Source: a virus. From it: a DNA stretch of 64,000 nucleotides. Below are positions 1-53,078 of this stretch, piece by piece; within the stretch, counting starts at the first letter, position 1, and each line of letters begins with the position of its first letter. Made by a program: the position numbers and the translations under genes. The notes below the pieces were generated by a model, which was not told the DNA's origin, did no database searches, and saw nothing but the letters and a program-made list of their open reading frames with translations. The stretch lies in IMG/VR virus record IMGVR_UViG_3300045988_056936, positions 1 to 64,000 of that record; one strand, given 5' to 3'.

Positions 1-112
1 AATTAACCTACTAACACCCTTCATTCAACACTACGTTATCTTTTGCCTAGAGGCAAGGATATTACTTAGCAAACTAAAAAAAAATAATAAAATGTTTCTA
101 AATATATAATAA

Positions 113-209
113 CTCGACATTGGAATTGGCATTGCTGACGTCATTGTTAGAATTGAAATAGCTGAGACCCGCATTGCCGCCATTATTCGCGTTGCTGCCT
201 ACTAGCAGT
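113..209 (-). repeat. DGR template repeat (TR). Non-coding copy rich in AAC/AAT codons, lying 75 bp past the tail-fibre stop codon
   Basis: About 97 nt homologous to 314-410 and to 28271-28367. I aligned base by base: about 22 mismatches to VR1 and about 20 to VR2, all at positions where this copy has A on the minus strand (T on plus), none at other bases. Read as peptide it gives ...GSNANNGGNAGLSYFNSNNDVSNANSIVGFR, the AAY-codon pattern typical of DGR templates. Confidence 0.85.
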
Positions 210-283
210 ACTTTTTTGCCAATCAACGGTTTTTAGAAGTAATATCCTACGATTTATCATCTAAATCGATTTTTATATTGTAT

Positions 284-3200
284 ATCTTAAGATACTCTAT
301 TCAGAGTCCTGAACCCGACAATGGAATCGGCACCGCCGACGTCATAGCTAGAATGGAAATAGCCGAGACCCGCATAGCCGCCATTACCCGCGCTGCCGCC
401 CACCAGCAGCGTGCGAAGCGCTGTGCTTCTTGCGTTGCAGTAATGGTAATCGCAAATATAAGTAGTAGCACTTCCTCCAACAGCGGATGGAATTATTTCA
501 GCGGTTTCACCTAAGTCAAATGCCTTAATATAACCATCAGATGCTACTTCGTATCCTGCAACGGTTTTCTCTCCAACTACGTCGGTAAATTCCGATACGT
601 TAGTAGTTGTATAGACAGTGCTAATCTCATTAGCAGCTGCTCTCACTATAACTACTCCGTCCAGGTTAGTCCAAATATCTCCAAATGGATTATCAAAACC
701 TCTCCATCTTGGAACTTTAAATGTCTTAGTCGCTACTGTATCTGTTCCGTTTGTTGCAGTACACTCTGGAATAACTAAATCTTTGATTCCAGTAAAGTTA
801 CCAATATCGTTACAGTAACCACATGGAGTAAGAGGATAGGTTCCATTATATCCAGACCAACTTGTAGCAGAGTTACTCCAGTCTGTAACTCCAGGACCAA
901 GTCCTCCTTGACGATAACCATCAGAAGTAAGCTCGGCATTATATGCAGCCTGAGAGTTAAAGTTAGCATATTCTATTACATAGTTCCAGTAGAATATCCA
1001 TTTATAATATTCATAGCATAATAATTCAGAACCTGCATTTGTAGCATAAGTTCTCATATTAGCTCTAGAAACATTAGTTCTAGGTTTTCCTAAATCGCTT
1101 CTAAAAGCATCTTTGGTCTCAAGTTCAGTAGTTAGATACCCATCGAATTGTGCTCTATTTCCACCACCTCTAAATGCTTCTGTAGTATTGACCACAGACA
1201 CAGCTTTAGGGGTTGCTGACACAGTATTATCAACGGTATTTCTATATGCGTCAATTAATAGTTCTGGTATTTCTATCCATGAATCATCAAGCTTTACTAG
1301 AGAAATTCTAACCCATCTTTTATTTCCATTAGAGCCTGATTTACCATAAAATTTAGGAGTGTGGACTCTTACAGTTCCATCAGTTCCATCGAGCACAGAA
1401 GGAGTACTTCCATCTTCTTTGTAAGCCCAATCATCCGGATATAAATAGTAATTTACCACACCGTTATTTGCTACACATCCTCTGTAAGCGGACTAGATAG
1501 GGAGGGATTTATGTAATAGTGGGTTTCCTATTCTAGTAAGGATAGGAGAAGATACGGTAATATCCCATTCTACTCCATAAGAGTATAAGTCTACGTTACT
1601 GCTTAACTCTGTGACTTGTTTGCTTAGACTCTATTGTTTTTTTTGTAATTCTTCCCAAGCAGTATTAAGAGCATTAAATTGTTTCTCTAACTTAGTACTA
1701 GTATCTGCCCACTATGCAGTCCCATCTTCAGAAAAGGTTAAAATCTATCCAAGTGCTCCTCCAGCAGGTATGTGTTTATTTCCAGAAGTAGTTGGGTGTA
1801 CATAATTATTTGCATTATCTGCAATACCACTAAGTTTCTGTTTTTCAGTTTCTGTGTAATTAGCTTCAGAAAGTCCTTTTCCTAATTCTTTATCTACCTT
1901 ACTTTCCAACTCCGTTTTAGTAGCTAAACCGCTTATATCCTAGTGTTCCTTTAAATAATTTTCATCATTCTATAACTAAGACACTTTAGTTGGAATGGCA
2001 CTAGATTTTGCATATGTCTAATCTATAACATTTCCAGAGCCATCATAGGTAGCCTTTAAGTCATATACGGTTTCTCCAACCTTTATAGATTTGATTGCTG
2101 CCATATCATTGTATTATTAAAGTTTCATCAACTACATCGTGATCTATTCCCTCTATGGAAGCAGTTAGGTCCTCAACAGCCTTCTACAATTCTGCTTTAG
2201 TAGCATAGTTCTTGAGAACTTCCTAGTCTACTCCAGAGCCTCCTCCTATACTTCCTCCAACAACTTTTACTGGTTTGGCAGAACTCTTAAACTGTCCTTC
2301 AATATAAATTGTTCCCATATTGTTTAAAATATTAATTGTTCATTTTCTCCATCTACCTCTACACTAGAACCTGGCTATAAAGCGTCTATCTTTTTCTACA
2401 ATTCGGCTACGGCCTAGCTAATTAGTTCTTCTACCTCAGCTTTGGTGTAGTATCTCTCTATAAGATATTCGCTCCTAACATATCCAGTATCTTGTAAATC
2501 TTTTTCTCCATAGGTGCAATAATAAGTATCTTCTTCAGTCTTACTATTCTCAACTAGGTCATCATAATCAGCTTGTGGTAAGCATACAAGTTTTGGTACT
2601 TCTTCAGTAATAGCAACTTGCTTGCCTCCAGCAAATAGCCTGTTATCTTCTGTGGTAAGTTTAACAGAACTCTCAATAACTTGCTCAGTTCCTGTTTCCT
2701 CAAAAGGTTCTCCAGTTGTTCCCTATTGTACTTCTTTTTCTCCAATTTTCTAAATAGTAATATCAGAAGTTTCTACTGATGTAGATTTCAAAAGCTCAGT
2801 GCTAAATTCTTTAGCAGCAGCAGCCTAATCATCCTGATATTTTTTCTAGGTAACAAATATGAAATCATCATCTCCGGTTTCAGGAGAGTCTCCCCTTAAA
2901 CTTTCTTTTGTTACGTAATCTTCGGCTATCTAATCTGATAAATCAGATAATGACTATTGAGTAGCATAAGTAGACTGAGCATTTTCCTTAGTAAGAAATT
3001 TGTCATCAACCTGCTAAATAGTATAATAAGCCTTAATATCTTCTGTAGTAACGTAGTTTCCAAGTTTTTGCAAACCTTGAACTATTTCATCAATCTACTT
3101 CTTGGAGTAATAATTTGTAGCAACCCAGGACTGATATTGATTGGTAGTATGATAATTCTAATCCAAATATTCCTTAGTAATATAAACCTTTGCATCATTT

Positions 3201-5778
3201 GTGACGTCATATACATAGTAATATGTATCAGGCTCTACCGTCCCTTCCTCTACTAACTTTAGATACTCTTCTTCAGTTAATGTTACTAAGTTCGGAATAT
3301 CCGATTCAGTAGCAATCTAATCTTCACCTATAAATAATCCTTCAGACCTAACGTCTACTACTAGCTAGCTCTCTCCCTCTACTACAGGAGATTTTATCTA
3401 TCCAACAGTGATGCTTTCTAAGGAACCATTCCCATCTACCTTTAAAGTCTTATCTAGCTCATCTTGAATAGCCTATTGGTCTTCGTCATACTATTTCTTT
3501 GTAACAAAGACAAAATCATCTCCTTCCATTCCTTCTCCTCTAAGACTTTCTTTGGTAACAAATATGTCATCAGTTTCTTCCTTAGTATAATGGTTAGATA
3601 AGGCTTTAGATAACAAGGACTCTGGGTCCTCTAAATCTAGATCAGTTTTAGGGGCATAATTCTCAGTTAACTCTTCAAGGGTAGCATACTTGGAAAGGTT
3701 AGAGATTGTCTAGTCTAAATCCGTTCTAATCTGTACGACAGTAGTATTTAGAGCTTTCTATTTCAACTATTCCTCTATCTTTTTACCCCATTCTGCTGAT
3801 AAGTAAAACTAATCATCATCTAGGCTGTCTTCATATATATAATAATATGTTTCTGCATGAAGATATGTTTTATCTTCGTCTATAGGTTTAAAATCTTCTG
3901 TGGTATTTTTAGACCATTCCTTATATTCAGCCTCTGTACAGGTGATTATCTAAATAGATTCATAAGAAGCTTTCCAACCTTCTTTGTATTTAATCTTAGA
4001 CTTATCTACTAGCATATAAATATTTCCGTTATCTATATTTGAAACGGTCATGCCTTGATAAGCATATTTCTCCGGAATAGAATATAATTCGTCTAAATTA
4101 TCGACTACTGTTCTATTATCAAGAGGTTTAGGAGTTTCTACGGTTAAAGCAACACCTAATGTAGCATCACCTGTATATTTAAATGCCATTATTGTGATAA
4201 AGTAAAGTTAATTTGATGAGGCAATGCTGAAGAATAAGTATCCTTCTTAGTCCATACTTTATAAGGAAATCCATTTATCTATTCAGTAGAAGTTTCCCAT
4301 CCACTTAAATCAACATTTAGGTATCCTAGTCCTCCATCTACTGTAAATGAATTTAGCTAAGTATTACTTCCAGGTAATTTTATAATAGCCTTTCCACTTA
4401 ATGAAAATGTAATAATTCCAGAAGATTGTCCAAATGGAACAAGACTCTATTTGATTAAACTATCTGTATTACCAGAATACCAAGGGTAGGTAGCAGTCAC
4501 CTATGCTGTAGTTGATATTGAACCAGCCTCCACCCTCTTGTCTGTAACCTCTCCCTTGTTGTTAATAAGATATTCTCCAGCAGCATAATTTACGGTACCA
4601 GAATGCACATAAACACCGATAGAATCATATGTTTCAGATTCTACAGGAGAATCATTATAGGTAATAGTTTCTTCTCTACCAGTTTCCTCTCCAGCATCAT
4701 TTTTTATAAATGTTAAAGTAGGGGTAAGTAAAGCGGATCCTACCTCCACAATCTAAGAGGTGAAGCTATAATACAACTAAGGATAAACCAAATCTCTAAC
4801 AACAGTAGGAAATAATAGAGTGTCTATAATCTCATTAAACGGCTTTCCTTTCAATTTTTCAACTGTAGTTCCTTGAATAACAGTAGAAGTAGTATCATCT
4901 GGAAGTTCAGTTTGATAAGTAGCTATAGTTTCTAAACTTGTCTATATATTTGTGATATTCTCAGTATTAGAATCTACTTTAGAATCAGTGTTCTTCTAAG
5001 CTTCCTATACTCCCTTAACTTCTTCCTTTACCTCTGTTAGAGATGGTTCCAGGTCTTTTACATATATTCCAGGTAGAACTACTGTGGAAGGTTCTCCTTC
5101 CTCCTCTACTGGAGGAATTTCCTACTGAATCAGATGTATTGCATTATCCTCCTACTAAGATAGAATTACTTCTAGAGTATTATCATCCTTTATTTCTATG
5201 GTTTTGGAGTTTCTTAGACTATTAGTTATCCAATTCTAGATGTTTTTGTCAACATCTATATTTTTGATAGACTCATTAATATCCTCTATTGCCTCATTAA
5301 TCTAGGTTATTTTCTCAGAAAGATTGTTTATGCCAGTTCTGTTAGATTCAATTTCTTCTTCAAGTTCTTCCTTAAGTACAGTAATAGAAGTTCTGATATT
5401 ACTTATATCAACTTTTATTTCCTCTATTTCTTCTGTATTAGCTTCGTACTAACTTATAAAGAATAAAGCATAATCTAAGGCATCTTTTACAGTATTGATA
5501 TTCTCTGCAACATCACTAGTATAAGTCCATTTCTATTCTATGTACTATACTAAATCTTTCTAGGCTTCTATAGTTCCTTCTATATTTCCCCAAAGAAGAC
5601 TCTACTCATCAGCGATACCTAGATTCTTTCTAACCTTAGCTCTTTCTAATTCAGTTCTATATTCTCCAAGATAGTTGTTTCTTAGGAGAGGTATAGGTTC
5701 ACTTTTTATTAAATGTCCTTTCTTTCCACAAGGCTTTATATCAGCATTGCTTACCGAAGTATAAATAGGCTGTATCAT
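284..5778 (-). CDS. Tail fibre / receptor-binding protein, possibly more than one gene, TAG-recoded, with the DGR variable region at the C-terminus. The 5' boundary is uncertain (candidate ATG at 5776-5778)
   Basis: ORF-track fragment 287..1459. My manual translation upstream continues in frame through TAG codons at 1493, 1631, 1712 and 1745 with no TAA or TGA. It yields ...YTETEKQKLSGIADNANNYVHPTTSGNKHIPAGGALG(Q)ILTF..., a phage tail-fibre-like motif. The C-terminus carries VR1. Confidence 0.45.
314..410 (-). repeat. DGR variable repeat VR1 at the extreme 3' end of the tail-fibre gene. GC-rich island
   Basis: Differs from TR only at TR adenines. Encodes ...LVGGSAGNGGYAGLGYFHSSYDVGGADSIVGFRTLN, then RVS and a TAA stop at 284-286. 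Its GC content stands out in an AT-rich genome. Confidence 0.85.
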
Positions 5779-5779
5779 T

Positions 5780-8700
5780 ATGATTCAATAATTGCTATTT
5801 AATAAATTCGTGATTATCTAATTTTACGGGTAGGTTAATAAAACAAATTAGATTCAAAATATCCTAATAATCTGGTCTATATCCCTTTCTAACCCTTTTA
5901 AGGAAATCCTCATACCTTTTAATAGCCTTTCTTTTAAGAGCATCCACAACCTATACGTTTATGTTCATGGTGATTGTCACAGAATCCACCGCAAGTGCGG
6001 AACATTGCTAACAATCTTTCAGCTTCCATGAATTGTTTAAAGCCTATTAAATAATCTATAATGTTAAGTGTCATCCAGATAAAATCTCTTGCAAATATAT
6101 CTGCATCATGTTCTCTAGTTAGACACTTATTTAATAAAGAGTCAAAGAGTTTCTTACAGTAGTTAATATAACACTATTGCAGATTTCCTGTAAAGAATAC
6201 ATCTACCTTACATTTTTTGATAGTAGTTCCTTCTATATTTCTCTCAAGGATTTCTTTTACAGTACATTCCTCTAGCTCTCCATCTACTTCTTTATATAGT
6301 TTCTCTCCATCAGTTATATAGATAGTTTCATAATACTCCTTGTATTCATCAGATGAATTTTCATACCATTTCATATTAGGAAGAATTATGTGGTCTACTA
6401 CATAATATCCATCTTCTTTCACCTTAAATGTACAAGAGTCTAAATCCTCTGTATGGTCATTGAGAAGTACGTCTATCAAAGTAGCATCTCCTATACTAAC
6501 TTTTATGATAGTATTTAGGGTAGCACTTTCACTATACTTATAAGAATCATAGGAAGTTACTACCTCTAAATCTTCATCAATATACTATCCATATTCCTTT
6601 GAAAAGTCTTCAATAGTTATTTCCCCGTTAATCTGGGTATGTATATCAATACTAAATTCCATATTATAATAATTAAGACTCAGTAGTAGGCCATTGACCA
6701 TATTGAGCAGGAGTAGAAAATGGTTTCCACTTACCTTCTTGTCGTATACGTCTAGACATAAAAACTGAACTAAATGATAAACTAATATCTTGAGGATAGT
6801 CTGTCCATGTATATGACTAACCTTCAGGAGTCGGTGGTAGACTATTTAATTTACCAGCTGGTTTCCCATTCCAATAATAATTATAGTCATATGCCTTAGT
6901 TGGAGTAACAGTCGTTGTTTCATGTCCTTCTAAATCTACATATAGAGGATTTCCATCCTCATCTGTTTTCTGCTTATACTCAATAACTGGAGTTATTCCC
7001 TCAGTTCTAGTGTATATATTCTAGATAATAGTAGAAACATCGCTTGCCACAATCTCATAAATAGTAGTTCCCTGAGATTCGTCAGCTCCCTAGAAAGTAA
7101 ATTTAGTTCTTTTCCAGATGTATGGATTCTCTTCAGTTGGAAGTTCAAAAGTATCAGTCCACTATTTAGTAGATAATTTTATCTCAGATTCTTCAGCAGT
7201 ATCAGCAGGTAAGTAATGAATCTTAATAATAATATTATTTACCGCTTCACTAGAACCAGAAAGATCTGACACCTATTTAAATAGTTTCTTTAAATCTTCT
7301 TCCACATTTGATTTGGAACCAGAAGCATTACTAATAATTACTGAACCATCTGAAATAGGATAAATCTATTGCTAATCCTTATTATATACAATTGTTCCAG
7401 TTGCCATATTAATGTATTTGTCTTATTTTGTCATTATATGGATTTCCATCATGAAGCTAAGCTAACTCTATTTCAGTTCTCTTTTCTTCTATATCCATTT
7501 GTCTATCTTTATATGTAGAATCAGATTGAGCTTTGAGCCAGTTAACTTTATATTCTAACTACATTTTCTGCTACTCTAATCCTAATCTCTATTCATCCAA
7601 ACTTTCTATCTTCTACTAAGCTTTCTATAGTTCTTGCTGTAACTGCTGTGCCTATTGTGAAGTTTCTTCCAGTTTTTCCTATAGCTGCTATAGCTAATTG
7701 TTTTCTTCTTTACGAATCTATACTGCTTTCTTAACCTTATATTTAAGGTCTGTAAGACTCTTAGCAGTTAGTGCTTCAAATATGATGTCAGGATCCATTT
7801 GCTGACTTTTAACAAACTCTGGAATAATAGCTTTAATAGTTTGTAAATCTTCCATTACTTCAGAGCTAGAAGTTATATGGATGTCATAATCAGTAACCGT
7901 AAAATACTCTGGAAGCGCTGTAAATATCTGCTAGTATTTATCTCCAAGTATAATAGTACCAGTCAATCCTTTCTTATATGTTATTTTAGCCTAGTTTAGA
8001 CTATCCAATAATATCTCACAAGTGATTAGGTCCATCTACTAGAAATAATGCTTGGTTACTATGTAAGAGTTAGTAACACCTTGCTTAATATTAGTTACAG
8101 CATCGTGAGTTTCTATTCCATTTAATCTTTCTCTAAATACTCCAGTTATAGATGATGTAGTTTGTTCTACTGATTGAATTGCTAATTCAATAGCCTATAC
8201 AGCCTAAGCTTTTAAGGTATCATCAAATCCATTGTATATCTAGTTAGGTGCTTGCGCTCCATCATTTCTTCCCTCCTAAGTGGAATCAATCCACATGATA
8301 CCACCCTTCTTGTATGCTAACCATTTCTACACTCTTTCTGGCCATTTTACGCCTAGGTTAGTAGGAAGCAATGACATATCCATGATTACTCCAGCAGTAC
8401 CGCTGTTAGCTATCAGGTTGTCCCTATAATAATTTAACAAGTCATATCTATCCTGTAGATGTGCACACTTTAATATCAGAGAGTACGGTTGTTGGGAACG
8501 ATTTAAGAAATATACCCCATTCACAGACAAAGAGCAGAAATTAGGATTATCTTTCGACCTCATAACAGTCTTGTCTAGACCTCTCAGAATATATATTTCT
8601 TCTCCAATTCTAATGGTATTGTATCTCTACATTACAAAATCGTCATCAGTTTCTATCCACTCTACATCATAAACAGGAATTAACTAAAATCTATGAGCAC

Positions 8701-9480
8701 TATATTCATTATCTGGATATCCAGGAATAGTTTCATGATTCTAATCTTCGTTTACTATAGTACAAGTGTCACCATAAACTCTTCTATAAACTGCAGCTGA
8801 ATCATCAGCTCTCCATTCATCTTTTAGTCTTTTCAAATCTTCTCTAGAGATTTCTTTTCCGTATTTAGCTAATATCTAGCTTTTACTCATCCATTTTCTA
8901 ACCACAACTCTATACGAATTTCTAACATATGGAGATTCTGGATTCCTATCTACGAAAGTATTTAAAGGATTCAGAACTTCTATTTCTATGTTAGTTCCAG
9001 AAGATGATGATTTTACTCTGAAAAATGTATAGCCAGTAATTAATAAATCTGTAAGTAACTATCGGAGTTTAGTTATTAAATCGGTTTCTCTAGACTGCAT
9101 AATATAATGAATAATATTCTATGCAGCTATCTCATATTGAGAAATAAAAGACTAATCAATGTCTTGAATAATTTTATCTAACTAAGTCTTCACGGCTTTA
9201 TCTGTAATATCTTTTCCGTCGATAAATTTCAGAATAGAATTACTTAAATGGTCTCTAAGAAATTTAACTATTCCTTTAGTTATTTCTAACTATTTTTCTC
9301 TAGTGATATTACTAATGGTATCTGAATCCTTACAAGAAATCTTCGGAAGGATAGGGGTTCCTAGATATTCTCCTACTAGAGCATCTACATGCTTTTTTAG
9401 TAATGGTGTAAATTCTACAGAAGTAGGACTACCTATTCCGAAGTTTTCTTCCAGGTAACGAAACTATTCTGGGTCTCTCT
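5780..9480 (-). CDS. Block of TAG-recoded virion/morphogenesis genes, not individually delimited. The ORF track is fragmented here because amber codons are sense codons
   Basis: All six frames lack long ORFs although the region is clearly coding: codon-like composition, minus-strand ORF fragments 6174..6479 and 8327..8563, and frequent CTA triplets on plus, which are TAG on minus. Confidence 0.3.
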
Positions 9481-9777
9481 TTCCGTTATAGTAATTATAG
9501 GCTTTCTATAATTCGTATTTATCATATACAAGCTCCGCAATAGCCTCGTTCGTCTTGTCTATCAGTTCTTTTTCTTTCATAACATAAATTATGCTGTTCT
9601 GGAGGAAGTTTAGTTGCATTATAGTATTTAACTCTTTGTAACTTCCTACTTCTTAATTCTTCCTTTATAAATGGGAGAAATTCTTCATCAGGTAAATCAG
9701 CTATAATGACTAAAGGCATCTCTGACCTATCAAAGTTAAACGATACCTTATAACCAACTGGATCTAGGTTCTGAATT

Positions 9778-12138
9778 TCAAGCCCACCTACGTATTCCAT
9801 TTTGTACAAGTCTCTCATATAACCTAGGATCACTTGTTTCAATTCTGTATGGGTCATCGTATTCATTTTTTTGTATGTTAGTTTCAAAAGTCTTAGAAGT
9901 TGGTATAACCCCAAATCTTTTGATTCCTCTCTCGTCGTAATAATAACCATAATCTTGGAATTGTTCAACTTCTTTTTCAACAAGCACTGGCTATCTTCCT
10001 GACAATTCCTAGTCTGCCAATTCTGTCATTCCCACAGCTGCTACAATATCGAATTTACCTTTATTCTCATCATTATATCCAGTAAATTGGTCTAACATTT
10101 CTTCAAACCATATAGTATGACAGAAATCCTCAATAAAGGCTGCTGTCAAATCAGTATGTTGTTCTATAATAGTTTTGGTAGCGGGTGTTCCGTACTATTT
10201 AGTAGTTCCATTCTTGACGTCTGTTAGAGTAGCTCTAGGTCTTTTCATAAAGTAGTTTAAACAACCCTTTTCTCTAGCCCAGGTAATCATACCTACACGG
10301 GTAGCTTCTATGTTTATTCTACAATTATAGTATCTAGCTAAACACATAGCTATTTTATAGGCTTCTCTAATGTCATTAGGTCTGTCTTTATACATAGCAA
10401 CATACTACGGTTCGTTTAGACCAAATGCTCTTCTTTTTATAGTTATACAGAAATCAGAAGGATCTCTTGTTTCTTTTGAAGTTTGACTAGCTCCTATATC
10501 AATACCGTCTATTCCTGCAACATATAAATCATGCATTTCTTTGTACGCTGGAGATTCAAATTCTTCTCCCCTTTCCTCGGCTTCCTATCTAAGTTTATCC
10601 ATCTACTCTTTATACAAATCAGACCATACAGGATGTTCAAGTATTTTTACTTTTCCGTTAATATTAGGAATCCATTTAAAACCATCTATATTATCCTAGG
10701 TGTGTTTATTATTTTTATAGAAATAGTCTATGTATCCAGATTCTGGTCTTGGTCCTATTTTCTTAAGTCTTATATTAGCTAACTGGTCCGCAATAAGAAT
10801 CTTGTTGAACTTGTTAACACCTTCAAGATTAAATGCTTCTTCTGCATTCCAACATCGTTCAGCACACTTCTTTAGATAGTCATCTGGAACTGCTAATAAA
10901 TTGTCGCGCTCTTCCTATAGATACTTCTTATATTCTACTGTATTACATACACCTCTATGGTCCATGTATTCTGAATTTAGAGACTAGACAAAATATGGAA
11001 TGAAGAACCCACTTTCAATAGTAGTCCCATCCTGGGTATAATTATGTCTAAATGGAAGAACTTTGTAAGCTTTTGGATTATAATATATCTTCTTAAGACC
11101 TGCTAATGGAGCGCCCATATCACCACCAGTACCTCCAAATAACATTGTTCCACGAGGTTTACCTTGAACTTCACAAAGCTCTTGTCCCTACACTACAGCA
11201 GTATCTAGTCCAGGCCAAGATCCTGCTTCATCATATATTAATAAGTCAACACGGTCTCCACGAATATTAGATGCCTTAGCTCCGTTTATTCCAACTACTT
11301 CCGATTTAAATCCAACATCCTCAAACTGTCCGTTTACCTTAATCTGTTTACCGGACTTCTTTCTTAAGTCTTGGTCAATCAAACGTAGTTTGAAGAATCC
11401 TCCTCCTGTACAAGTATTCAAGAATGTTAAAGCATTATCAAACTTACTAAAAGTACCTTTAAGGAAGGTATCATTAAAACAGGTAATCATTACTCTGCTT
11501 CTTCTGATTACTGAATACATTCTTGCAGATAAGGATGCATTTATTTCAGAGAATCCAATAGAACGAGCTTTCATAAGAGCTGCGTGTTTATGCAGAACTC
11601 TAGCCATCTATAGATAATGAAAGAACATATAATGAGATGCGAAAAATATAGGAAAGTCACTACTTGTTCCTTCTCCAGATGCCTTGTTATCATCAATAAT
11701 AGGAAGCTAGTAGAAGTTTAGGAAGAAATAGTTATCTCCAGTAATTGTATAACCATTAACAGTCATTCCATATTTACATCTTCTATACTATTCCTTCCAA
11801 AACTCATTATATCTCTTACTATCTTTTAGATATGGACAATACTTTCCAGTTTTTCTATATACTTCTCTGGTCTCAGTAAACCAATCTGGGTCGAAATCAA
11901 GACCATGTGTTTCATCTATTGGTCTATATCCAGTTATTTCATAAGATAAAGTAGGGTCAAATACCTCTATCTTATCTCCTCTTTTTACATCCCAATAATC
12001 AGCATTTTTGCCTCTTTCCTCTCTTATCTTCTATACTAGTTCTCTAGCTTCTTTGGCATCCTCTTTTTGTTCTTTCTCTCTTACCTAATCTACTATATTC
12101 TAGATTTCTTCAGGTAATATTTTTTTCTTTCTAGGCAT
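9778..12138 (-). CDS. terL: Terminase large subunit (TAG-recoded)
   Basis: ORF fragments 11188..11607 (..LIYDEAG.. Walker-B-like terminase ATPase motif), 10195..10395 and 9778..9987 share one frame. ATG at 12138-12136 and TGA at 9778-9780. In-frame TAGs link the fragments. Confidence 0.55.
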
Positions 12139-13520
12139 AATTAAAAGTCTCCTGGGTCAAAGCCGTCTGTAGCTCCACCTCTTACAGTAGATTGTTCTGT
12201 AAGCTCTTTCTTAACCTGCTCTTCTAGTGTTACTAATTCTTCATGAACTTTATGAAGAGTAGCCATTTCTTTCATTACCTTTTCAGCTTGAAAGACGGGT
12301 TTGCCATTATTATCACGTTCATTTAAATCTACTATAGTATCAAAATAATCAATAAACTAGTCAGCTGCTCTTTTAGCTGCTTCTAGAAGTTTTATTGATT
12401 TGTTAGAATCCTACAATGCTCGGTATTTTCTACAGGCTTCCCTGAATAACGGGTCATTAAATTCGGATTCAGATAGTCCAGAGTCACTAATAGCTTCATC
12501 ATGTCTTTCATGTTCTGAATATTGGCTATAGGGACTCTTCCAATCAATAGCTAGATAAATGTAAGATAATTCTCTAGTTACTCGTTCCTTGTCAACAGAT
12601 TTATCCCTCTGTATCAAAGCCTTAAACTCTTTAACTAGAAGAAGCTCTGGTTCATTTATTTCTAACTATTTAGTTAAAGTGTTATAATTAAATACATTCA
12701 TACTCATCAATCATTAACATTAACATCTTTAATCTTTTTATTTCATTTTAGAACCGCATTTACTTACTTTCATTTTAGAACCACAAGCATCTTTCTTAGC
12801 ATACTTTGTTCTATCTGGAACCCATTTTCCATTTTTAAAGTTTCCCTTGTGTCCTCTATTTGCCATGACCTCCTAGTCATTATATTTATTAATAGATACA
12901 GAATCTCTGGATGCTTCATCCTTTGCAGATTTCATATCCTTTTTATACTAAGCTCTTCCAGCCTTGAACTTGTCAACTTCATTAGCTTTCTTAGTAACCT
13001 TAGTTCCTTTCTATGCTTTTTGGCAAGCTTTGCAGATTCTTCCTCCCTGTTTAAAATAAACAAGTTCCTCTCCTTCTGGGCATACTCCTTTTAATTTTTT
13101 ATAGTATTCTAGTTTAGCTCCAAGTCTAGCCATAACTCCGCCTTGCATCTTCTACATAAATTCTTGATACTTGGCTTTGATTCCATCTTCTCCAAGCTAC
13201 TCAGCGTAAGCCTATAAATCTTGCTCTGATTGTAGTTGTATCCCTTGTGCTTGGGCATCTTGTATCAAGTATGCCATGAATGCTTTCTGTAATTCTTCCT
13301 AATTAGCCATTACTCTTCTACTTTAATTAAATCCTTTGTATTAAATACTGCTTCCTGCATTAATCCAGAATCAGTAAACCATCTACATCTTAGTCCTCGT
13401 AATCCTTGGTTATCTTTAAATAAAGCTGCTTCTCTTCTTAGAACAAGCATAACTGGAGAGTGCATTACTTTACACTACCGTAAAGTAACACAATCCCCAG
13501 GCTTAAAATAAACTTTTTCA

Positions 13521-15695: not shown

Positions 15696-16037
15696 ATGTC
15701 TAACAGTAAGAAAATTACAACATTTGGGTGTCCAATTTTCAAAAATGGGTCGGGCATTCACATTAAAGAGAAGAACAGAGGCAAATTTACAGCATCTGCC
15801 AAGGCAGCAGGAGAATCTGTACAAGAACACGCTAAGCATGTACTAAACAATCCTAACGCTACCCCTCTTTAGAAGAAGCGAGCTAATTTTGCTAGAAATG
15901 CTTCTAAATGGAAACACGAAGATGGGGCTAAGATACATAAACCGAGTGGACATAGGTCTATTCTAGATAATGGATGGATTCCTACTACTAGATTAAAGAA
16001 GGGAACTTATGGATTTATTAAAACTAAGAAACGATGA
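15696..16037 (+). CDS. Small plus-strand gene embedded in the minus block, TAG-recoded (MSNSKKITTFGCPIFKNGSGIHIKEK...)
   Basis: ATG at 15696. My manual translation reads through in-frame TAGs and ends at TGA near 16037. It is not called by the ORF track because of the amber codons. Confidence 0.3.
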
Positions 16038-16310
16038 AAAACATTATTAAGTGCATTAAAGAGATTGTATTAAGAATATATCTATATTTACTATTTATAT
16101 TTAAAAAGTAACATGGACTATAACAAAGCAACTTTACACGCGGCAACAGGTCGTACTCTCTTACTTCCTGGATGGAGAGGATATTTTTATTGGGATTATT
16201 CTAAAAAGGAATTGAATTTCAGAAACGGAGATTATCATTTAGATAATAAATAGCTTAGAGAAAAGGGAGTCATGGAGAGAACTGATTGGTACTATATTAT
16301 ATAACAAAAT

Positions 16311-16350
16311 AGGCGAGCCTAGAGATTAGGTTCGCCTATTTTTATTTAAC
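16311..16350 (+). terminator. Rho-independent terminator-like hairpin (taggcga...tcgccta followed by a T-run)
   Basis: A 7-bp perfect stem followed by TTTTTATTT, immediately after the small plus-strand ORFs at 15696-16310. Confidence 0.45.
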
Positions 16351-17504
16351 ATTATACTTTGTATCATAAGTACAAGTGATTCTATTTATACCATCCTCCC
16401 ACCAAGGTTTATCTGATGGCTATCTAATACCACTTGGGATGGTTATTGTAGGAGTAGAAGTTTCTACTATAGCATCTACTATTTTAAATAATGTATCCAA
16501 GTCAAATTCTGGAAATTCATTATGTAAGTTTGTCAATGTCTTTTTAAAGTCTATCATATCCCTCAAATGTATTATCAATTATTGCTTTTTCTAGTGTAGT
16601 GTCTTTATATAGTCCATTTTTAATTAGATTTCTAACTGAATTGTCAACTACATTCCATATATCAATCAGTAATGATTTATTCTCCGGAACACTTCTAAGT
16701 GTACTTTCTAAATATCCGGCTTTTATCATATTTATTAGTTGACCGTTAATAAAGACTTCAAATTTAAATTCTTTATCCATATATTTTAGTATATTACACT
16801 TAGTCTATTTAATTCATCTAGGTAATCTAGAAACCATTGTTCATTTTGTTTTCCTTCTTCTGCAACAATCTCAATTAAAGATTCTGCTGCTAGGAGTATA
16901 GTTTCAGATAACTCTTTTAAATTTGGCTTAGTTAGTTCATTGTATTTATCAGTCAAGTTTAACATAATCCATCCAGTCTTTTATATATGATTTACATTCC
17001 TCTAAATCTGGATAGATACTTGCTATAGTGCAACCTGTTTTTGGATTCCTAAAATGATGGAGTTTTGCTTCCTCATTTTTCTCCTCTTCTATATTTCTAT
17101 TTAATGTTCTATTCCAGTAGTTGTATTTCTCATCTAGCATTTCCTTATCACACTCCTCCAATATTTTCATATTGGGATTACTCATTATTTTGTCATACTT
17201 TCTTTTTAAATTAGAAACTTTGACAACATCATTACCATTCAATACGACTGCACACTGTTTCATTTCACTACTTTATAAGTACATATCTTACCTATCTGCT
17301 TTCCTTGAATACTTATTTGTGGAAGAAAGTAGCAGGCTTGATTCTCAAATTCTTGAGGTACAAATATGTAATCAAATCTACATCCAACTACCTTATCGCA
17401 AACTTTATTCCAATCATCTCCCTCTTCAATAATAAGGGTCTTAGCTCCTGTTGGAGTTACAGCATAATTCTCATTTAAATTTATCATAACTATTAATTTT
17501 GGCG

Positions 17505-17576
17505 TTGCCCTACTAGGATTCGAACCCAGACTAAATGATTTAGAGTCATCTGTGCTGACCATTACACCATAGGGCA
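17505..17576 (-). tRNA. Amber-suppressor tRNA, anticodon CUA, tRNA-Gln-derived
   Basis: Manual cloverleaf: acceptor TGCCCTA/TAGGGCA (U1-A72) with discriminator A; D-arm GGTGTAATGGTC; anticodon stem GATGA/TCATT with loop CTCTAAA (U33, CUA, A37); T-arm CTGGG-TTCGAAT-CCTAG. The D-arm and acceptor are near-identical to tRNA-Gln(UUG) at 32536. It sits at the 5' head of the TAG-rich minus-strand block. Confidence 0.8.
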
Positions 17577-18240
17577 GTATTTATTTCTCTTTTAGAGATT
17601 TATTCTCCGCTGCCAATTTCTCTAGTTCTTTCCTTAGCTGTTCGTTTTCGTGAAATAAAGCCTACATGGTTGCATTTACATTAGCAAGGAGTATTCTTAT
17701 TTGAGCTATTTGTTCATACATATGCTTTCAGTTGTTCTATTTTCATAGTTACCACATTAGATAATGCCATTCTGAATTTAGTAATTCCAGCTCTTACTGA
17801 TTCCAATTTTCCACTTTCCAAACATTCTTGAATTTTATTTAGTTCGGATTCCCCTAGATATTCGCAGACATCTATAAATAAATCATCATCTAAAGATTCT
17901 AAGTATTTCTGGAATTTGCCTACTTCTTCATTAGCTAGACAGCTTTCCTCTTTCTATCTCTCATAAGATATTAATAAGAATAAAGAATCATCTGTAGATT
18001 CCGCTTTAATGGTTAGACCATTACTTGATAGATAATACTCCTAGTTCTTATTAATTGCATCAACGAGATTCTTAAACTCGTCCTAATTTAGTAATGTTTC
18101 TAAGTCTGTAATCATAATTGTTTCTTTTTTAGTTATATACAACAATACCTTCTGAAAAGTTAAATACAAAGTTAAAAAATTCTAATTCTAATATTATACA
18201 TATTTCATTTAGTTATCCGCAAATGGGTACAGGTACTTTA

Positions 18241-18249
18241 TATAAATAG
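18241..18249 (+). promoter_or_regulatory. TATAAATA(G) motif, copy 1 (T4-late-promoter-like box)
   Basis: ttatataaatagcc, about 190 bp upstream of ORF 18434. Confidence 0.25.
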
Positions 18250-18433
18250 CCCCCTGGGGGTTTAATAAATTCGGAATTTATATACAGGTGAAAATTACCT
18301 AGATTCCGAAAATTATATGAGAGACTGTTATGGCGGTCCACAACCCCTTTAGTCCCCCCCTGTATATTGATATAAAACTAAAACAAAAACAAAAGTAACT
18401 CACAGTATTAACAAATTAAAAATTTTTAGTATT

Positions 18434-18880
18434 ATGACACTCGAAGAATTAAAGAACAGTAATCTCAGCGTAGAAGAACGTGCTAAATCAGTGGTAAACT
18501 CATTAGGTTTGGAAGGTAATGAACGTTCAGTTGTTGTCGGCTTGAAGAAGGGCGATAAGTTCCAGATTGTTGCTATGAACAAAATGGAATTGACAAACAA
18601 CACACAAAGAGAAGGACAAGCAAGGTTTGTGCCTATCACTTTCACAACTGACAGTGGTGCATCAATCGGAGCTAAACACTTCGCTGGCGTAACTATCGAC
18701 GACGAAGCTCCTGCTATTGGTTCTACTCCTTTGGAAAATGCAAATTTCCTTGTTTGGTGCATAGACCACAAAGTAACATTTGTGGTTAAGAGCATCACCT
18801 CTGAAGACATCGAGGCACACGGAGGAGTTCCGGCTTACACCAAGAGAACTTACAAACTTGAGGTTGAGGATTACGAGTAA
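18434..18880 (+). CDS. Hypothetical protein. First gene of the rightward arm, likely early and abundant
   Basis: A 148-aa ORF with no internal TAG, directly downstream of the divergent promoter region. Confidence 0.5.
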   Translation: MTLEELKNSNLSVEERAKSVVNSLGLEGNERSVVVGLKKGDKFQIVAMNKMELTNNTQREGQARFVPITFTTDSGASIGAKHFAGVTIDDEAPAIGSTPLENANFLVWCIDHKVTFVVKSITSEDIEAHGGVPAYTKRTYKLEVEDYE

Positions 18881-19140
18881 AAGATTGGGGAGAAATCCCC
18901 TTTCTTTTATATACAAATAATCTTTGTAGTTATGGACACGAGAAAAAAGTTCAGAACGAGAAAGTGTTTGTATAGCTGGGGAGCAATCTATGACCCAAAG
19001 ACTGGAGAAAAGTTAAATCTCAAAGCGGACAGAGTTTATTGTAAAACTTCTGAAGCATGGATTATGACTTATCAAAAGTCAGAAGAAGACATCCCAAAAG
19101 TAATAAGAATTGTCTTTGTAGATTAACACGACTCTCTCGT

Positions 19141-19149
19141 GTATAAATA
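19141..19149 (+). promoter_or_regulatory. cGtGTATAAATA motif, copy 2, flanked by the inverted repeat actctctc/gagagtgt
   Basis: tctcgtgtataaataagtgagag. Confidence 0.3.
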
Positions 19150-19236
19150 AGTGAGAGTGTGACCGAATCTTAGAGTCAATCTCAGCGCACAACGAGATTT
19201 AAAATAAGTCAAACGTGCAACTCTAAGGTATTACGA

Positions 19237-19245
19237 GTATAAATA
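19237..19245 (+). promoter_or_regulatory. cGaGTATAAATA motif, copy 3
   Basis: ttacgagtataaataaaatg. Confidence 0.3.
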
Positions 19246-19975
19246 AAATGCCCATATGAACTCCATCATTGGAACATTGGTCAACGGAGAAATCAACAAC
19301 AAAACAAAAAAAATCAAAACCGAGTTAACTTTTGTAGTAGTTTTAGTTTTTATGTCTGGCTGATAGGAAAGACTATCATTTCTAGTAAAATCGTGTATGT
19401 TTCACGTGAAAATATGGAGAGTAAGGAGAAGAATGTTCCACAAACTCAAAGGCAGATTTTCCTACTTTTTCCAGTTTTCAAAAAATCGCCAGTAGGACGA
19501 GTTTTATAACTCATACTACAATGATTATTTACTCTAACATTAGCCTATAAAAAGGCAACAAAAAGCGGGGTTACGCAGATAGCCCAATATCCGAAAATAA
19601 CTGCTATTAATGAAAATGAGAGTTCGCAAACTTATCTCATGAGTAAGGAGGATTGAGCTATAAGATTGGTCACTTATAGCAATATATGAAAGTACTGCTG
19701 ACATACAAGTAGACCATGTATGTCATATTTTTATATGTTATGCAATTGTATTAGAAGTTGCCTGGTATAAGCCGCTAGATTAATAAGGCTAGCTGATAAG
19801 AGGATACCTCATAAGGGTATATTTCCTACCTCGAACTCAGTCGCAAGAATATGGATTAGCTACCTATATTCTTAGTGAACGTTAGTAACGTAGCTATTTG
19901 ATTTTCAGTATAGGAAACTGAGAATTAAGTAGTTGAATAACTCTCTATCTTATACTAGTTGCCAAGATAGAGTTT

Positions 19976-20045
19976 TCCCCATTAGTATAATGCATTGCGC
20001 CTTCCTCTAAAGAAGGAGATTCTGGTTCAAACCCGGAGTGGGGAA
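19976..20045 (+). tRNA. Second CUA-anticodon (amber-suppressor) tRNA, Gln-like acceptor, atypical 3-bp D-stem
   Basis: Acceptor TCCCCAT/GTGGGGA (U1-A72, U7·G66) with discriminator A; anticodon stem CCTTC/GAAGG with loop CTCTAAA (CUA); T-arm TCTGG-TTCAAAC-CCGGA. The D-arm is weak (GTA/TGC). Confidence 0.45.
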
Positions 20046-20851
20046 CTTAGTATTTGAGGACTACAGCTACTTGTAGGCTCTATTTGCTGTTAAGGACTAT
20101 AATGGGTACGCCCAGAGACTATGTAATTGTTGTGAAACAATTCAAAGGAGAGTGGCACAGGAAGGTCTTTTGATAGTGTTCATTTTTTATCCCAACAGCG
20201 GTGGGGATATTTTTAAAACTCAGCCTAGGAGAGTATAAAATACCATCTGATGAGACTAGGACGAAATATACTTTGTATATAATGGTATAACTAATTAAAA
20301 CTAAGAAGATGAAAAAGAGATATATTATTCCAGAGGAACTGCATTTTGCTTCTGCTAGCTGTGGATTTGAATGTAATAATTATGACGAGGTATTAGCGTT
20401 TGCTGGATATTTTCTATCTATCGGGTGTTCCTTTGAGGTTTCGGATCTCTATATCGAACCAAAGGGGAATTTAATTCCTTTAAAACAGTCGAACGAAGAA
20501 AGGGATGTATGGGAATATCTCATGCTAGAGTTTTAATAACTAAAACATAAATATTATGAGCAAATTGACAAAAAAGAAAACAGAAACTCTCTATGCCAAA
20601 ATGGTAAGAGAAGAAAAAGCTATGCAAATTGCTGCTCAATATGGTCTTCAATATGAAGTACTTCAGTCTATTAAGGCTGGATGTACTCCAGAAGAAGCCT
20701 TACGTGAATGGGATTTAGTATAGCTTTCTTTAAAAAACTTAATAACTTTCCAAGTCATTGAGGACACCAGTTTCTTATATGTTACGCATGAGAGGTCGAA
20801 CATACTCCTTGCGATATAAGTTTTAGGTGTAAAATGCAATACTAGTTATAT

Positions 20852-34746: not shown

Positions 34747-35931
34747 ATGAACAAGGTTTGGATGTGTTCCGGGTCTACATACACCCAAGTAGGCTCAGGT
34801 TACAAGATTTCGGAATCTCTTCCGGTTGGTATTTACAGTATTAGTCTGACAATGACAGGTTATCACCTGGATAAGTATGCAGACAAGTTCGTATTTCCGT
34901 ACAAGATGTATGGACTGCAGGAAGATTTCATAGACTATGTAATCAAAACTTATAGTAACACGGAAGGAAACTTGGGAATCATGCTTACTGGTACAAAAGG
35001 TACTGGAAAGACTGTCACAGCTAAAGAATTAGCTAACAAATTGAACCTTCCTGTTATTATAGTAAAGGATATGGGAGACCATAATCAATCTATGATTGAG
35101 TTTCTCTCTGGCATTGAGGGAGACTGTGTTCTCTTCCTAGACGAGTTTGAAAAGAACTTCAGCGAGTCGGATTCTACAATCCTCCAAATTATGGATGGAG
35201 TTTATAACTCTAAGTATCGTAAGGTATTCTTGTTGACTACTAATGCAATGTCTATCAACGAGAATATGGTAGGACGTCCGTCTAGAATCCGCTACGTCAA
35301 GAAGTTTGAAAATCTTGATTTGAAGGTTGTAAACGAATATCTAGACGATGCCTTGGAAGTTCCAGAAGCACGTCAAGATTTGCTTGACTTCATTGATTCT
35401 TTGACCATATCAACTATTGATATTCTCAAAACTATAGTTAATGAAGTTAACATTCATGGAATTGAAGGTTTGAGAAAGGCTAAGAGTTTCTTCAATGTAG
35501 TAACTAATGAGTATGAGTATTCCTGTATCAGAGGTTATGCTTACACTGGAGAAATTGAGCAAGACAAGAATAAGTTCTCTATTGAGAACTTCTCCAAGGC
35601 TGTTGAGAGATTTAATAATCCTATACCTAAGCCTATTGTTAACGATGAGGATAACTGTACTATGGAGGAAAGAAAAGCTCTCAACGAATACTATGAGTAT
35701 CGTCGCCATAACTTCCACAACCTGTCGTATTACTTTATCTACTCTTCTACCAAGTTCAGCAATCTTAAGGTGGGAGACGGCTTCTACAGTGACGAGATTA
35801 TCGCTATTGACAAGAAGTTGAATGTTATTGTTACTAAGAACGGTAACGAAATTAACTACTACTGGATTAAAGATCCTAACAGTAAGCCATCTCTGTATCG
35901 TACAGGAAGATACGATTCTTTGGTACTCTAA
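34747..35931 (+). CDS. AAA+ ATPase, function unknown
   Basis: Walker A GTKGTGKT, Walker B VLFLDEFEK, sensor ..LLTTNA... Confidence 0.5.
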   Translation: MNKVWMCSGSTYTQVGSGYKISESLPVGIYSISLTMTGYHLDKYADKFVFPYKMYGLQEDFIDYVIKTYSNTEGNLGIMLTGTKGTGKTVTAKELANKLNLPVIIVKDMGDHNQSMIEFLSGIEGDCVLFLDEFEKNFSESDSTILQIMDGVYNSKYRKVFLLTTNAMSINENMVGRPSRIRYVKKFENLDLKVVNEYLDDALEVPEARQDLLDFIDSLTISTIDILKTIVNEVNIHGIEGLRKAKSFFNVVTNEYEYSCIRGYAYTGEIEQDKNKFSIENFSKAVERFNNPIPKPIVNDEDNCTMEERKALNEYYEYRRHNFHNLSYYFIYSSTKFSNLKVGDGFYSDEIIAIDKKLNVIVTKNGNEINYYWIKDPNSKPSLYRTGRYDSLVL

Positions 35932-37804: not shown

Positions 37805-37889
37805 AAATCTTAATATCCGTGTGGGTGAATGGTTTAGCCATCAGTCTGCAAAACTGAAAAGAGAAATCTTTAATGAGGGTTCGAATCCC
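37805..37889 (+). tRNA. Atypical type-II tRNA with GCA anticodon and U73 (Cys identity elements) plus a 17-nt variable stem-loop
   Basis: Acceptor ATCCGTG/CACGGAT perfect, discriminator T; anticodon stem TCAGT/ACTGA with loop CTGCAAA; variable arm AAAGA-GAAA-TCTTT-AAT; T-arm GAGGG-TTCGAAT-CCCTC. Confidence 0.55.
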
Positions 37890-37919
37890 TCCACGGATTC
37901 TAATTTTAAATTTAAAAAT

Positions 37920-38701: not shown

Positions 38702-38780
38702 CGTGGAGTAGAGAAGTGGTCATCTCGCTAGGCTCATAACCTAGAAATCGTCATAAACGGTTCGAATCCTACCTCCGCAA
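38702..38780 (+). tRNA. tRNA-like element with CAU anticodon and initiator-like C1xA72, but a disrupted/extended T-arm. Possible pseudo-tRNA
   Basis: Acceptor CGTGGAG/CTCCGCA; D-arm GAGA/TCTC; anticodon stem CTAGG/CCTAG with loop CTCATAA. The T-loop TTCGAAT is present but the 5' T-stem strand is replaced by GTCATAAACGG. Confidence 0.3.
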
Positions 38781-39024
38781 CTAAACTCCTTTTGTGGCTC
38801 TGAATTAGATTAATTATTAACAATTTTAAACTTTGATGTTATGAAGAAAGTAATTAATGTTGTGAAGAAAGCTGCTAAGTGGTATTTTGAACAGAGTTCT
38901 AAGAGCTATACATGGTTAGTTTCTGGAACTATTCCGCCTCCTTATAGAGGTCTAGAGTAAAGATACTACTAAAAGGTAAGTACCAAAGGGGTACTTATCT
39001 ACACCCGTGGAGAAAATTAACTAT

Positions 39025-52061: not shown

Positions 52062-53078
52062 ATGAAGAAAATTTTTAGTATTATTTGTTTGTGTTTAATG
52101 TGCGTGTTTGCTAGCGCACAAGTTGTTGAAACTGGAAGTTTGAAAGATAACTGGTATGTTTCTGGTAATGTAGGTACCACAATTTGGGACAACTCAAGAA
52201 GTTGGGCTGAACCTCATGATGTATTAGTAAATATTGCGGTGGGTAAAGAAATTACTCCTATCTTCGGACTAGAGTTAGATATGATGGCAGGTATGAATCA
52301 AGGCAGTAAAACGTTCTTCGATTCCCATAACCTTACAGCTAATGTAACTACTAATCTAACTAATCTTATTTGTGGATACGAAGGCTCTAGACGTTTATTT
52401 GAGCCTGTATTACTGATAGGTGCTGGTTGGTATCATACTTATGGTGATGTTTATAATAATGTATCTGCAAGAGGTGCAATTAGATGCAACTTTAATATTA
52501 CTGATAGTTGGGCACTAAATGTTACTCCAGAGTATATGCTACTTCCAAAGACTACTCCTCTAAATCATGAAGTAAATGTTTATATAGGAGCCACTTACCG
52601 GTTTAAGTCTAATAAAGGAAACTTTCCTATGATGAAACTATATAGTGACGCTGAAGTAGAAAGTCTTAATGCTGCTATTAACGAGTTGAGGGTTAAGAAT
52701 AGCGAATTGGAATCTCGTAAACCAGTAGAAATAATTAAGACTGATACTATAGTAGTTACTAAGGTAGAACTTCTTACACCTAAAATTCAGTTTTTACAGA
52801 ACTCTTCTGAAATCTCTACAACTTCTAATGTTGCAGTATCGGAGTTAGCAGCTTATATTTCAAATAGTGGTAAGTCATATATGATTGAAGGATATGCTTC
52901 TGAAGAAGGTCCAGTAGATTTTAATGACAACTTAGCTGTAGCTAGAGCAGAATCTATGAAGAAGGCCCTTATCAGTTATGGCGCTCCAGAGGATAAGCTT
53001 ATAGTTAAAGGCTGCGGAAGCACTACTGAGTTTGGAGATAGAGAATTTAACAGAATCGTAATCGTAACAGAACAATGA
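52062..53078 (+). CDS. OmpA-family outer-membrane protein (signal peptide, beta-barrel, OmpA_C peptidoglycan-binding domain)
   Basis: MKKIFSIICLCLMCVFASAQ. The C-terminal ..EGYASEEGPVDFNDNLAVARAESMKKAL..GCGSTTE.. matches OmpA_C. Confidence 0.6.
   Translation: MKKIFSIICLCLMCVFASAQVVETGSLKDNWYVSGNVGTTIWDNSRSWAEPHDVLVNIAVGKEITPIFGLELDMMAGMNQGSKTFFDSHNLTANVTTNLTNLICGYEGSRRLFEPVLLIGAGWYHTYGDVYNNVSARGAIRCNFNITDSWALNVTPEYMLLPKTTPLNHEVNVYIGATYRFKSNKGNFPMMKLYSDAEVESLNAAINELRVKNSELESRKPVEIIKTDTIVVTKVELLTPKIQFLQNSSEISTTSNVAVSELAAYISNSGKSYMIEGYASEEGPVDFNDNLAVARAESMKKALISYGAPEDKLIVKGCGSTTEFGDREFNRIVIVTEQ

Follow-up and report, generated by a model that had tools for sequence, protein, structure and literature searches.

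In the diversity-generating retroelement (DGR) of phage BPP-1, arranged as mtd-avd-TR-Sp-brt, sequence is transferred with adenine-specific changes from a template repeat (TR) to a variable repeat (VR) that lies 3'-terminally in the gene for a tail protein. The reverse transcriptase (RT) of this element, bRT, requires Avd, an accessory variability determinant that many but not all DGRs possess, and its 140-nt spacer RNA (Sp) supplies the priming site for cDNA synthesis. DGRs have also been described in Zeta crAss-like phages of the ctoVY1 / cthgQ11 / 3717_85572 group, whose genomes of ~182-189 kb (~34.6% GC) carry 24-27 tRNAs, among them a suppressor tRNA with a CTA anticodon, and show amber recoding (PMC12386605, Table 1). 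The target described there is a tail fibre with its VR at the C terminus, a lectin fold has been reported for the Zeta crAss-like targets, the RT, unusually long at 414 amino acids (aa), contains suppressed TAGs and a GxxxSQ motif, and most of these DGRs reportedly have no Avd; extra TR/VR pairs are reported only for Lera and ct1yV3, with no mention of a remote second VR for the Zeta group (PMC12386605). Like DGRs with amber-recoded RTs in Zeta crAss-like phages, phage DGRs with two targets are already published: in these 33-47 kb myoviruses one TR and one RT serve two functionally different genes, both located in the cassette, one encoding a tail or receptor-binding protein of the classical kind, its VR at the C terminus, and the other (their target 1) a lectin-plus-Ig 'tentaclin' with an N-terminal VR. 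Here we analyse a 64,000-nt stretch of viral DNA, positions 1 to 64,000 of IMG/VR record IMGVR_UViG_3300045988_056936 (hereafter the window). At its left end lies part of what we judge, with a probability of roughly 0.93, to be a functional DGR without Avd, carried by a crAss-like gut phage of Zeta type whose genome is ~192 kb and in which TAG is read as glutamine.

The locus resembles the BPP-1 element in its adenine-specific TR-to-VR transfer, in a VR placed 3'-terminally in the gene for a tail protein, in an RT that is homologous to bRT and has the [I/V/L]GxxxSQ motif, and in a spacer that occupies the same position as Sp and has a similar length. It differs from BPP-1 in having two targets, one of them remote, in ~95 extra C-terminal residues of the RT and its dependence on TAG suppression, and in a spacer resembling the Rfam motif RT-17 where BPP-1 has an RT-10 motif. 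Furthermore, no avd gene was found among the open reading frames (ORFs) flanking the cassette (between target gene 1 and the RT, or after the RT) or the approximately one dozen other ORFs to which the scan extended, and there is neither a GC-rich initiation of mutagenic homing (IMH) sequence nor a non-adenine difference between IMH and IMH*. The likeness to the Zeta group extends to genome size (191.7 kb), number of tRNAs (27), CTA suppressor, amber recoding, GxxxSQ motif, RT length (424 aa from a TTG start), GC content and the lack of a detected Avd; a remote second target, an RT-17-like spacer RNA and a TAG codon at the signature glutamine set the locus apart from the published description. 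A megablast search of window positions 1-6000 against GenBank phages gave no match. [quoted passage not shown] In the window, TerL (9778-12138) shares 26-28% identity with annotated Crassvirales TerL across ~80% of its length, and the proposed membership in the Zeta group rests on the common features together with this identity rather than on a tree.

The element is recognised by two direct repeats of 98 nt, offset by 201 nt and 83% identical, one of which (TR) is non-coding and A-rich on the minus strand, the other (VR1, the G+C-rich copy) lying in target gene 1 (for coordinates of the features, see the table below). Each difference between the two copies falls at a TR adenine: all 17 mismatches in the 98-nt core are located on the 28 TR adenines (17/17; hypergeometric P = 4.7e-12), and none is found at a TR C, G or T. 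A first-pass annotation, made from the sequence alone, had proposed this pair as the repeats of a DGR and had counted approximately 22 adenine-only differences between positions 113-209 and 314-410. The repeat pair is real and the differences are indeed confined to TR adenines, but their number at these positions is 18, corresponding on the minus strand to 14 A>G, 3 A>T and 1 A>C. VR1 translates to ...LLVGGSAGNGGYAGLGYFHSSYDVGGADSIVG; the ORF then continues with FRTLNRVS and closes at a TAA stop (287-289). In the same reading frame TR would read LLVGSNANNGGNAGLSYFNSNNDVSNANSNVE, so that the ending SNANSIVGFR previously given for it is wrong, whereas the AAY codons noticed at the same time are present and number 10. 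Together with eight other adenine-containing codons they would give TR a coding capacity of ~2e15 peptide variants, and no diversifiable TR codon can be converted to a stop. When IMG/VR and the JGI metagenomes were searched for exact matches to the VR1 of this window, none was returned, as is expected because this segment is hypervariable.

No RT is encoded inside the window, as judged from a motif scan of all six frames and Pfam searches of the larger ORFs, and TR lies just 110 nt from the window edge. A YLDD-containing ORF at 34747-35931 was rejected as a candidate, being an AAA ATPase. The parent contig, ENA ERZ28595537 scaffold_15 (sample SAMEA2338727; 191,730 bp), was reached via the exact 605-aa recoded product of target gene 1, which is present in public collections at 100% identity; an exact look-up of the 390-aa standard-code fragment of the same gene gave no record. 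Locus L096 of this contig is the reverse complement of window positions 1-12,104 with 0 mismatches, and it continues into an intact RT gene (L096:12136-13410) that encodes 424 aa from a TTG start with four in-frame TAGs. The start corresponds to window coordinate -31, 32 nt past the window edge and 141 nt after TR. The protein contains the motifs IGNYLSQ and YADD, and the signature Q of GxxxSQ, the counterpart of bRT Gln 187, is a TAG codon in this genome. The near-identical RT of one relative (L028) matches Pfam RVT_1 (1e-19) and the PHROG reverse transcriptase family (2e-113). The best solved relative is 8ub7_A (E 4.7e-45), group II intron and retron RTs following at ~1e-15. Residues R74 and I181 of bRT promote adenine mutagenesis, and their counterparts are conserved here. 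By these comparisons the RT is assigned to the DGR type. Among the 52 scorable relatives, 49 have an intact RT of 409-424 aa situated 139-146 nt after TR, and the gene is truncated in 3; the IMG/VR relatives are genomes of ~185-192 kb with an RT gene immediately downstream of TR.

Several minor features of the RT gene may be mentioned. The TTG, the likely start, is conserved across clades and is replaced by ATG at the same codon in two distant loci (L091 and L092). An upstream ATG was rejected as the start, since it is out of frame in most relatives as a run of adenines varies in length from A5 to A7; only L027 and L028, the A7 variants, have this ATG in the RT frame. This run of 5-7 A (L096:12117-12138), which directly precedes the TTG and varies between genomes, could reflect homopolymer assembly noise or a slippage-prone site affecting RT initiation. 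The C-terminal extension of ~95 residues (~330-424) reaches past the region aligned with the 328-aa solved RT and has no family match. A small ORF beside the RT (121-125 aa) belongs to phrog_11557, of unknown function, has no Pfam match and is unlike a basic four-helix bundle. The RT contains 4-10 TAG codons in the close clade (L016-L043) and none in a sister clade that is ~70-74% identical (L042, L044-L095); judging from this difference, the RT appears to have been TAG-recoded only recently in this phage group.

Target gene 1 matches phrog_5302, annotated 'tail protein' (E 1e-85); its product has no Pfam match, and a profile search against PDB sequences was also empty. On the minus strand of window positions 1-13,300 the standard code yields short broken ORFs and TAG readthrough yields contiguous large genes, target 1 itself attaining its 605 aa only when eight TAGs are read through. 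Of the 27 tRNA genes in the window, two have the anticodon CTA. When 50 RT homologues are aligned, the TAG codons pair most often with Gln; at two TAG columns, among which is the invariant Q of the SQ motif, Gln is found in 38/38 and 40/41 of the homologues with a sense codon. The reading of TAG as glutamine in this phage is well supported by such comparisons, since TAG aligns with Gln in the RT homologues and one CTA tRNA is like the phage's own tRNA-Gln(TTG).

When the window was scanned with TR, scoring only the non-adenine positions, a second variable repeat (VR2) was found on the opposite strand, at a distance of 28 kb from the cassette. Over 94 nt, 21/21 mismatches to TR are located at TR adenines (P 2.5e-15) and non-A mismatches number 0, compared with 37/70 non-A mismatches at the next-best site of the window; the 15 sites at which VR1 and VR2 in turn differ are likewise TR adenines without exception. 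Target gene 2, which lies between the genes for tRNA-His and tRNA-Ser, is found at a syntenic distance in ~30 relatives. Its product matches phrog_11581 (unknown function; 4e-15) and falls in a family of small proteins for which clustering at the 50% level gives 317 representatives. It has no Pfam match, 79 divergent relatives gave nothing consistent in Pfam, and a profile search against PDB sequences was empty. A pattern in which all TR adenines are wildcards occurs in at most three copies per genome (TR, VR1 and VR2), with exactly three in twelve near-complete genomes, and revealed no third VR in related complete genomes; this lineage therefore has two targets. Similarly to the published two-target phage DGRs, one TR and one RT here serve two functionally different genes, one of them a classical tail protein with a C-terminal VR. 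Differently from these phages, target 2 is a stand-alone protein of 186 aa without an Ig domain, encoded far from the cassette among tRNA genes on a TAG-free arm of the genome. The sequence pattern GG..A..GG.AGLG.F.S...VG.A.S.VG alone is suggestive of a C-type-lectin-like (or Ig-like) fold, and a receptor-binding role of the targets is inferred.

The spacer between TR and RT contains blocks that are kept across clades whose flanking intergenic DNA has diverged. The Rfam model RF03020 (RT-17) aligns in full (model positions 1-95) to L096:12045-12133, i.e., window 60 to -28, with 28.7 bits (E 6e-4), which we take as a resemblance and not as membership; the RT-18 model scores 23.9 bits on the spacer. 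Like the RT-17 and RT-18 motifs (RF03020, RF03021; PMC5737381), the spacer adjoins an RT gene, and it has in common with them the hairpin CCUUGCC-UCNU-GGCAAAA as well as a second stem that lies between UAGUAG and UCGAA. The hairpin TTGCC-TAGA-GGCAA at 44-57, already pointed out in the first-pass annotation, is present and has 2 pairs with compensatory changes in relatives, namely TTACC/GGTAA in L091 and TAACC/GGTTA in L088. In the predicted structure of the spacer, 96.5% of cells are paired, compared with 31-60% when the partners are slid, and the covariation score, obtained from 12 sequences only, exceeds that of all 500 shuffles.

Two further small hairpins follow VR1. The one at 300-313 is a candidate only; it is maintained as TTTAG...CTAAA, a synonymous and compensatory change, in some relatives, and the pair is broken in others. 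The second, at 250-268, reads CAGTTTA...TAAACTG in L034 and L041, corresponding to two compensatory pairs, and is not conserved in more distant clades. The common 3' segment TTCC(A/T)(A/T)TGTCG(A/G)G that had been noticed in both copies is also present, the repeats ending in TTCCNNTGTCG(G/A)G. At the last variable position, 27/27 VR1 and 29/29 usable VR2 sequences have G (GTCGGG) and almost every TR has A (GTCGAG), two distant TRs differing. This position could plausibly represent an IMH/IMH* distinction or plain selection for glycine, the former being inseparable from mutagenesis combined with glycine selection because the last variable position is itself a TR adenine. At the opposite end of the repeat, VR1 column 5 (window ~404-405) shows a recurrent non-adenine change (TR CTA vs VR1 CGG) in 9/27 relatives, and the three 5'-most TR adenines are nearly always G in the VR1 of relatives; together these observations suggest that the 5' end of the repeat is seldom transferred or that the homing boundary is variable. 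A scan of window positions 1-700 for sigma-70 promoters and terminators was uninformative for this phage of Bacteroidota type.

The same VR/TR pair is found in ~60 related genomes, with >90% of the mismatches at TR adenines (e.g., 26/26 in L018 and L037). Among 27 close relatives, TR is represented mostly by identical copies, with an entropy of 0.15 bits at A columns and 0.12 bits at non-A columns. VR1, in contrast, occurs as 27 distinct sequences in these 27 genomes, its entropy reaching 1.295 bits at the 30 TR-A columns vs 0.114 bits at the other 68. The near invariance of TR, while the VRs vary at the TR-A columns, supports mutagenic homing, and the comparison indicates that the DGR is active across this lineage. 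The relatives thereby provide the population-level counterpart of the read pile-up over VR1 that had been proposed at first pass, and where a lack of variation at the A positions would have spoken for a fossil duplication, every VR1 was found to be distinct. The DGR reading of the first-pass annotation has thus held, with repeats, adenine-only differences, a tail-protein target bearing VR1 at its C-terminal end, TAG recoding with eight readthroughs in the target and two CTA-anticodon tRNAs, and an intact DGR-type RT past coordinate 1 all present; it had overlooked the remote VR2, the absence of Avd and the published DGRs in amber-recoded Zeta crAss-like phages.

Several points weigh against a functional element of this kind. 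No Avd was detected among the scanned ORFs, though the RT of BPP-1 requires it. The RT-17 match of the spacer lies under the gathering score, at 28.7 vs 40.4 bits, and no relative reaches this threshold; the whole spacer region folds no better than shuffled sequence (z = 0.83). No hairpin that could serve target recognition was found in common downstream of VR1 and VR2, nor was an evident IMH/IMH* pair differing at bases other than adenine. The AlphaFold2 models of the two targets came from shallow alignments and had predicted local distance difference test (pLDDT) scores of 42 and 26, too low for a fold search. Finally, the evidence for activity would apply to the lineage, coming as it does from the genomes of relatives and not from this single genome, whose TR has lost 2 of the 30 adenines of its clade.

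The last of these points is also one on which one could build the view that the DGR is real in the lineage and is silent or decaying in this genome, the VR/TR differences being inherited. At two sites the window TR carries G instead of the A of the clade consensus (28 vs 30 adenines), the TRs of some relatives are partly overwritten with VR-like sequence, the RT is truncated in 3/52 relatives, and the evidence for activity is from relatives and not from reads of the source sample. We nevertheless regard decay in this genome as quite unlikely. The RT of the parent contig is full length and contains all motifs, and VR2 proteins that vary in the VR alone are abundant. Because both lost adenines correspond to sites that are already G in nearly all VRs, little repertoire is lost from the window TR, which retains 28 adenines and all 10 AAY codons. 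As to the VR-like, mutagenised stretches, they are located at the 5' end of TR in L038 and in its 3' part in L043; together with the eroded window TR, they suggest that cDNA or VR sequence sometimes overwrites TR itself.

VR2 might alternatively be what remains of an earlier duplication or transfer of a VR1-type domain instead of a current homing target, as its distance from the cassette, its location on the other strand and the lack of a downstream hairpin would allow. This is very improbable and largely refuted by the variation of VR2 itself. Besides lacking any non-A mismatch to TR over 94 nt, VR2 is distinct in 28/29 relatives, being as variable as VR1 at TR-A columns (1.276 bits) and more conserved elsewhere (0.048 bits). 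At 90% identity, the cluster of target 2 proteins comprises 3,514 distinct sequences, whose differences are nearly all in the VR; of 13 that were sampled, six equal the window protein at all 154 non-VR residues and differ from it at 8-10 of the 32 VR residues. Ordinary diversifying selection and recombination on a duplicated segment, with the A-rich copy as a degenerate pseudo-repeat, is effectively refuted, for even if phage tail proteins often have receptor-binding regions that are hypervariable in the absence of a DGR, such processes leave unexplained the restriction of 17/17, 21/21 and >90% of differences (the last in ~60 other genomes) to the adenines of a non-coding copy, the 94-nt segment common to two unrelated genes 28 kb apart and varying at the same columns, and the DGR-clade RT ~140 nt downstream of TR in 49/52 scorable relatives.

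The functional DGR that we favour has the minus-strand order target 1 (tail protein), TR, 141-nt structured spacer and RT gene. By analogy with BPP-1, TR and spacer would be transcribed, and the RT-17-like spacer RNA would position and prime the RT. The resulting cDNA would replace VR1 at the 3' end of the tail-protein gene and also VR2 in the gene for the 186-aa protein, 28 kb away on the other strand. Production of the RT needs TAG suppression at four codons, one of which specifies the conserved Q of GxxxSQ. Because of this requirement, RT production and diversification are probably tied to the phase of infection in which the suppressor tRNA is active. Spacer priming of cDNA, the homing mechanism and the timing are inferred.

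A further, unlikely extension of this scheme would have target 2 act as a non-virion, stand-alone early or middle protein, e.g., an intracellular or released binder that tracks host defence or surface molecules. The DGR would in that case diversify two kinds of protein, a recoded tail protein made late and an effector made early from the standard code, with the RT gated by TAG at the glutamine of its catalytic motif, and the RT extension and the RT-17-like RNA might together replace Avd.

The locus adds a well-documented, lineage-active DGR for an abundant group of human-gut phages. Beyond the published Zeta description, it includes a remote target, encoded on the non-recoded arm, whose function is unknown and of which thousands of natural variants exist. 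The conserved RT-17-like RNA in the TR-RT spacer supports the speculation made in 2017 that the Rfam 'RT' motifs are DGR priming RNAs (PMC5737381), and the presence of TAG at the signature glutamine of the RT links diversification to the recoding switch. The understanding of how DGRs work is unchanged by these details. Note also that DGR finders limited to the standard code or to the cassette would probably miss parts of this element, and that the DGR was recognisable from raw sequence despite an RT cut off at the window edge and genes fragmented by recoding.

Table. Features of the retroelement, its two targets and the suppressor tRNAs, in window coordinates.
Feature	Position	Strand	Description
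TR-to-RT spacer	1..110	minus	window part of 141 nt; gap 139-146 nt in 49 relatives
RT-17-like structured RNA	1..60, plus 28 nt past the window	minus	resembles Rfam RF03020; includes hairpin 44-57
Template repeat (TR)	111..208	minus	non-coding, 98 nt, with 28 adenines; read in the VR frame, 10 AAY codons
Hairpin CGATTTA-GATGA-TAAATCG	250..268	minus	VR1-TR intergenic region
Target gene 1	287..2104	minus	605-aa tail protein; 8 in-frame TAG; TAA stop at 287-289
Hairpin TTCAG-GACT-CTGAA	300..313	minus	right after the VR1/TR homology, in the last codons of target 1; candidate only
Variable repeat 1 (VR1)	312..409	minus	encodes residues ~565-597 of the tail protein
Suppressor tRNA, anticodon CTA	17504..17576	minus	closest to the phage's own tRNA-Gln(TTG)
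Second CTA-anticodon tRNA	19976..20046	plus	no clear relation to any other window tRNA
Target gene 2	27926..28486	plus	186-aa protein of unknown function, no TAG; VR at residues ~117-148, ~38 residues follow
Variable repeat 2 (VR2)	28273..28366	plus	same TR and same reading frame as VR1

Outside the retroelement, the window is divided into two arms by a strand switch and a GC-skew minimum located within positions 16000-20000, which the two CTA suppressor tRNAs flank. The minus-strand genes up to ~18.1 kb are TAG-recoded and structural, and those of the plus strand from ~18.4 kb are mostly TAG-free. The plus strand contains 25 tRNA genes between 25035 and 48406, mixed with small ORFs. Some of these tRNAs are long, such as tRNA-Cys at 37815-37900 (86 nt) and tRNA-Met at 38702-38781 (80 nt), and may contain introns or be mis-calls. 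The auxiliary genes of the plus arm include those for an SPFH/Band 7 protein (657 aa; 30013-31986), an OmpA-like outer-membrane beta-barrel protein (338 aa; 52062-53078) and a nicotinamide/nicotinate phosphoribosyltransferase (516 aa; 54956-56506).

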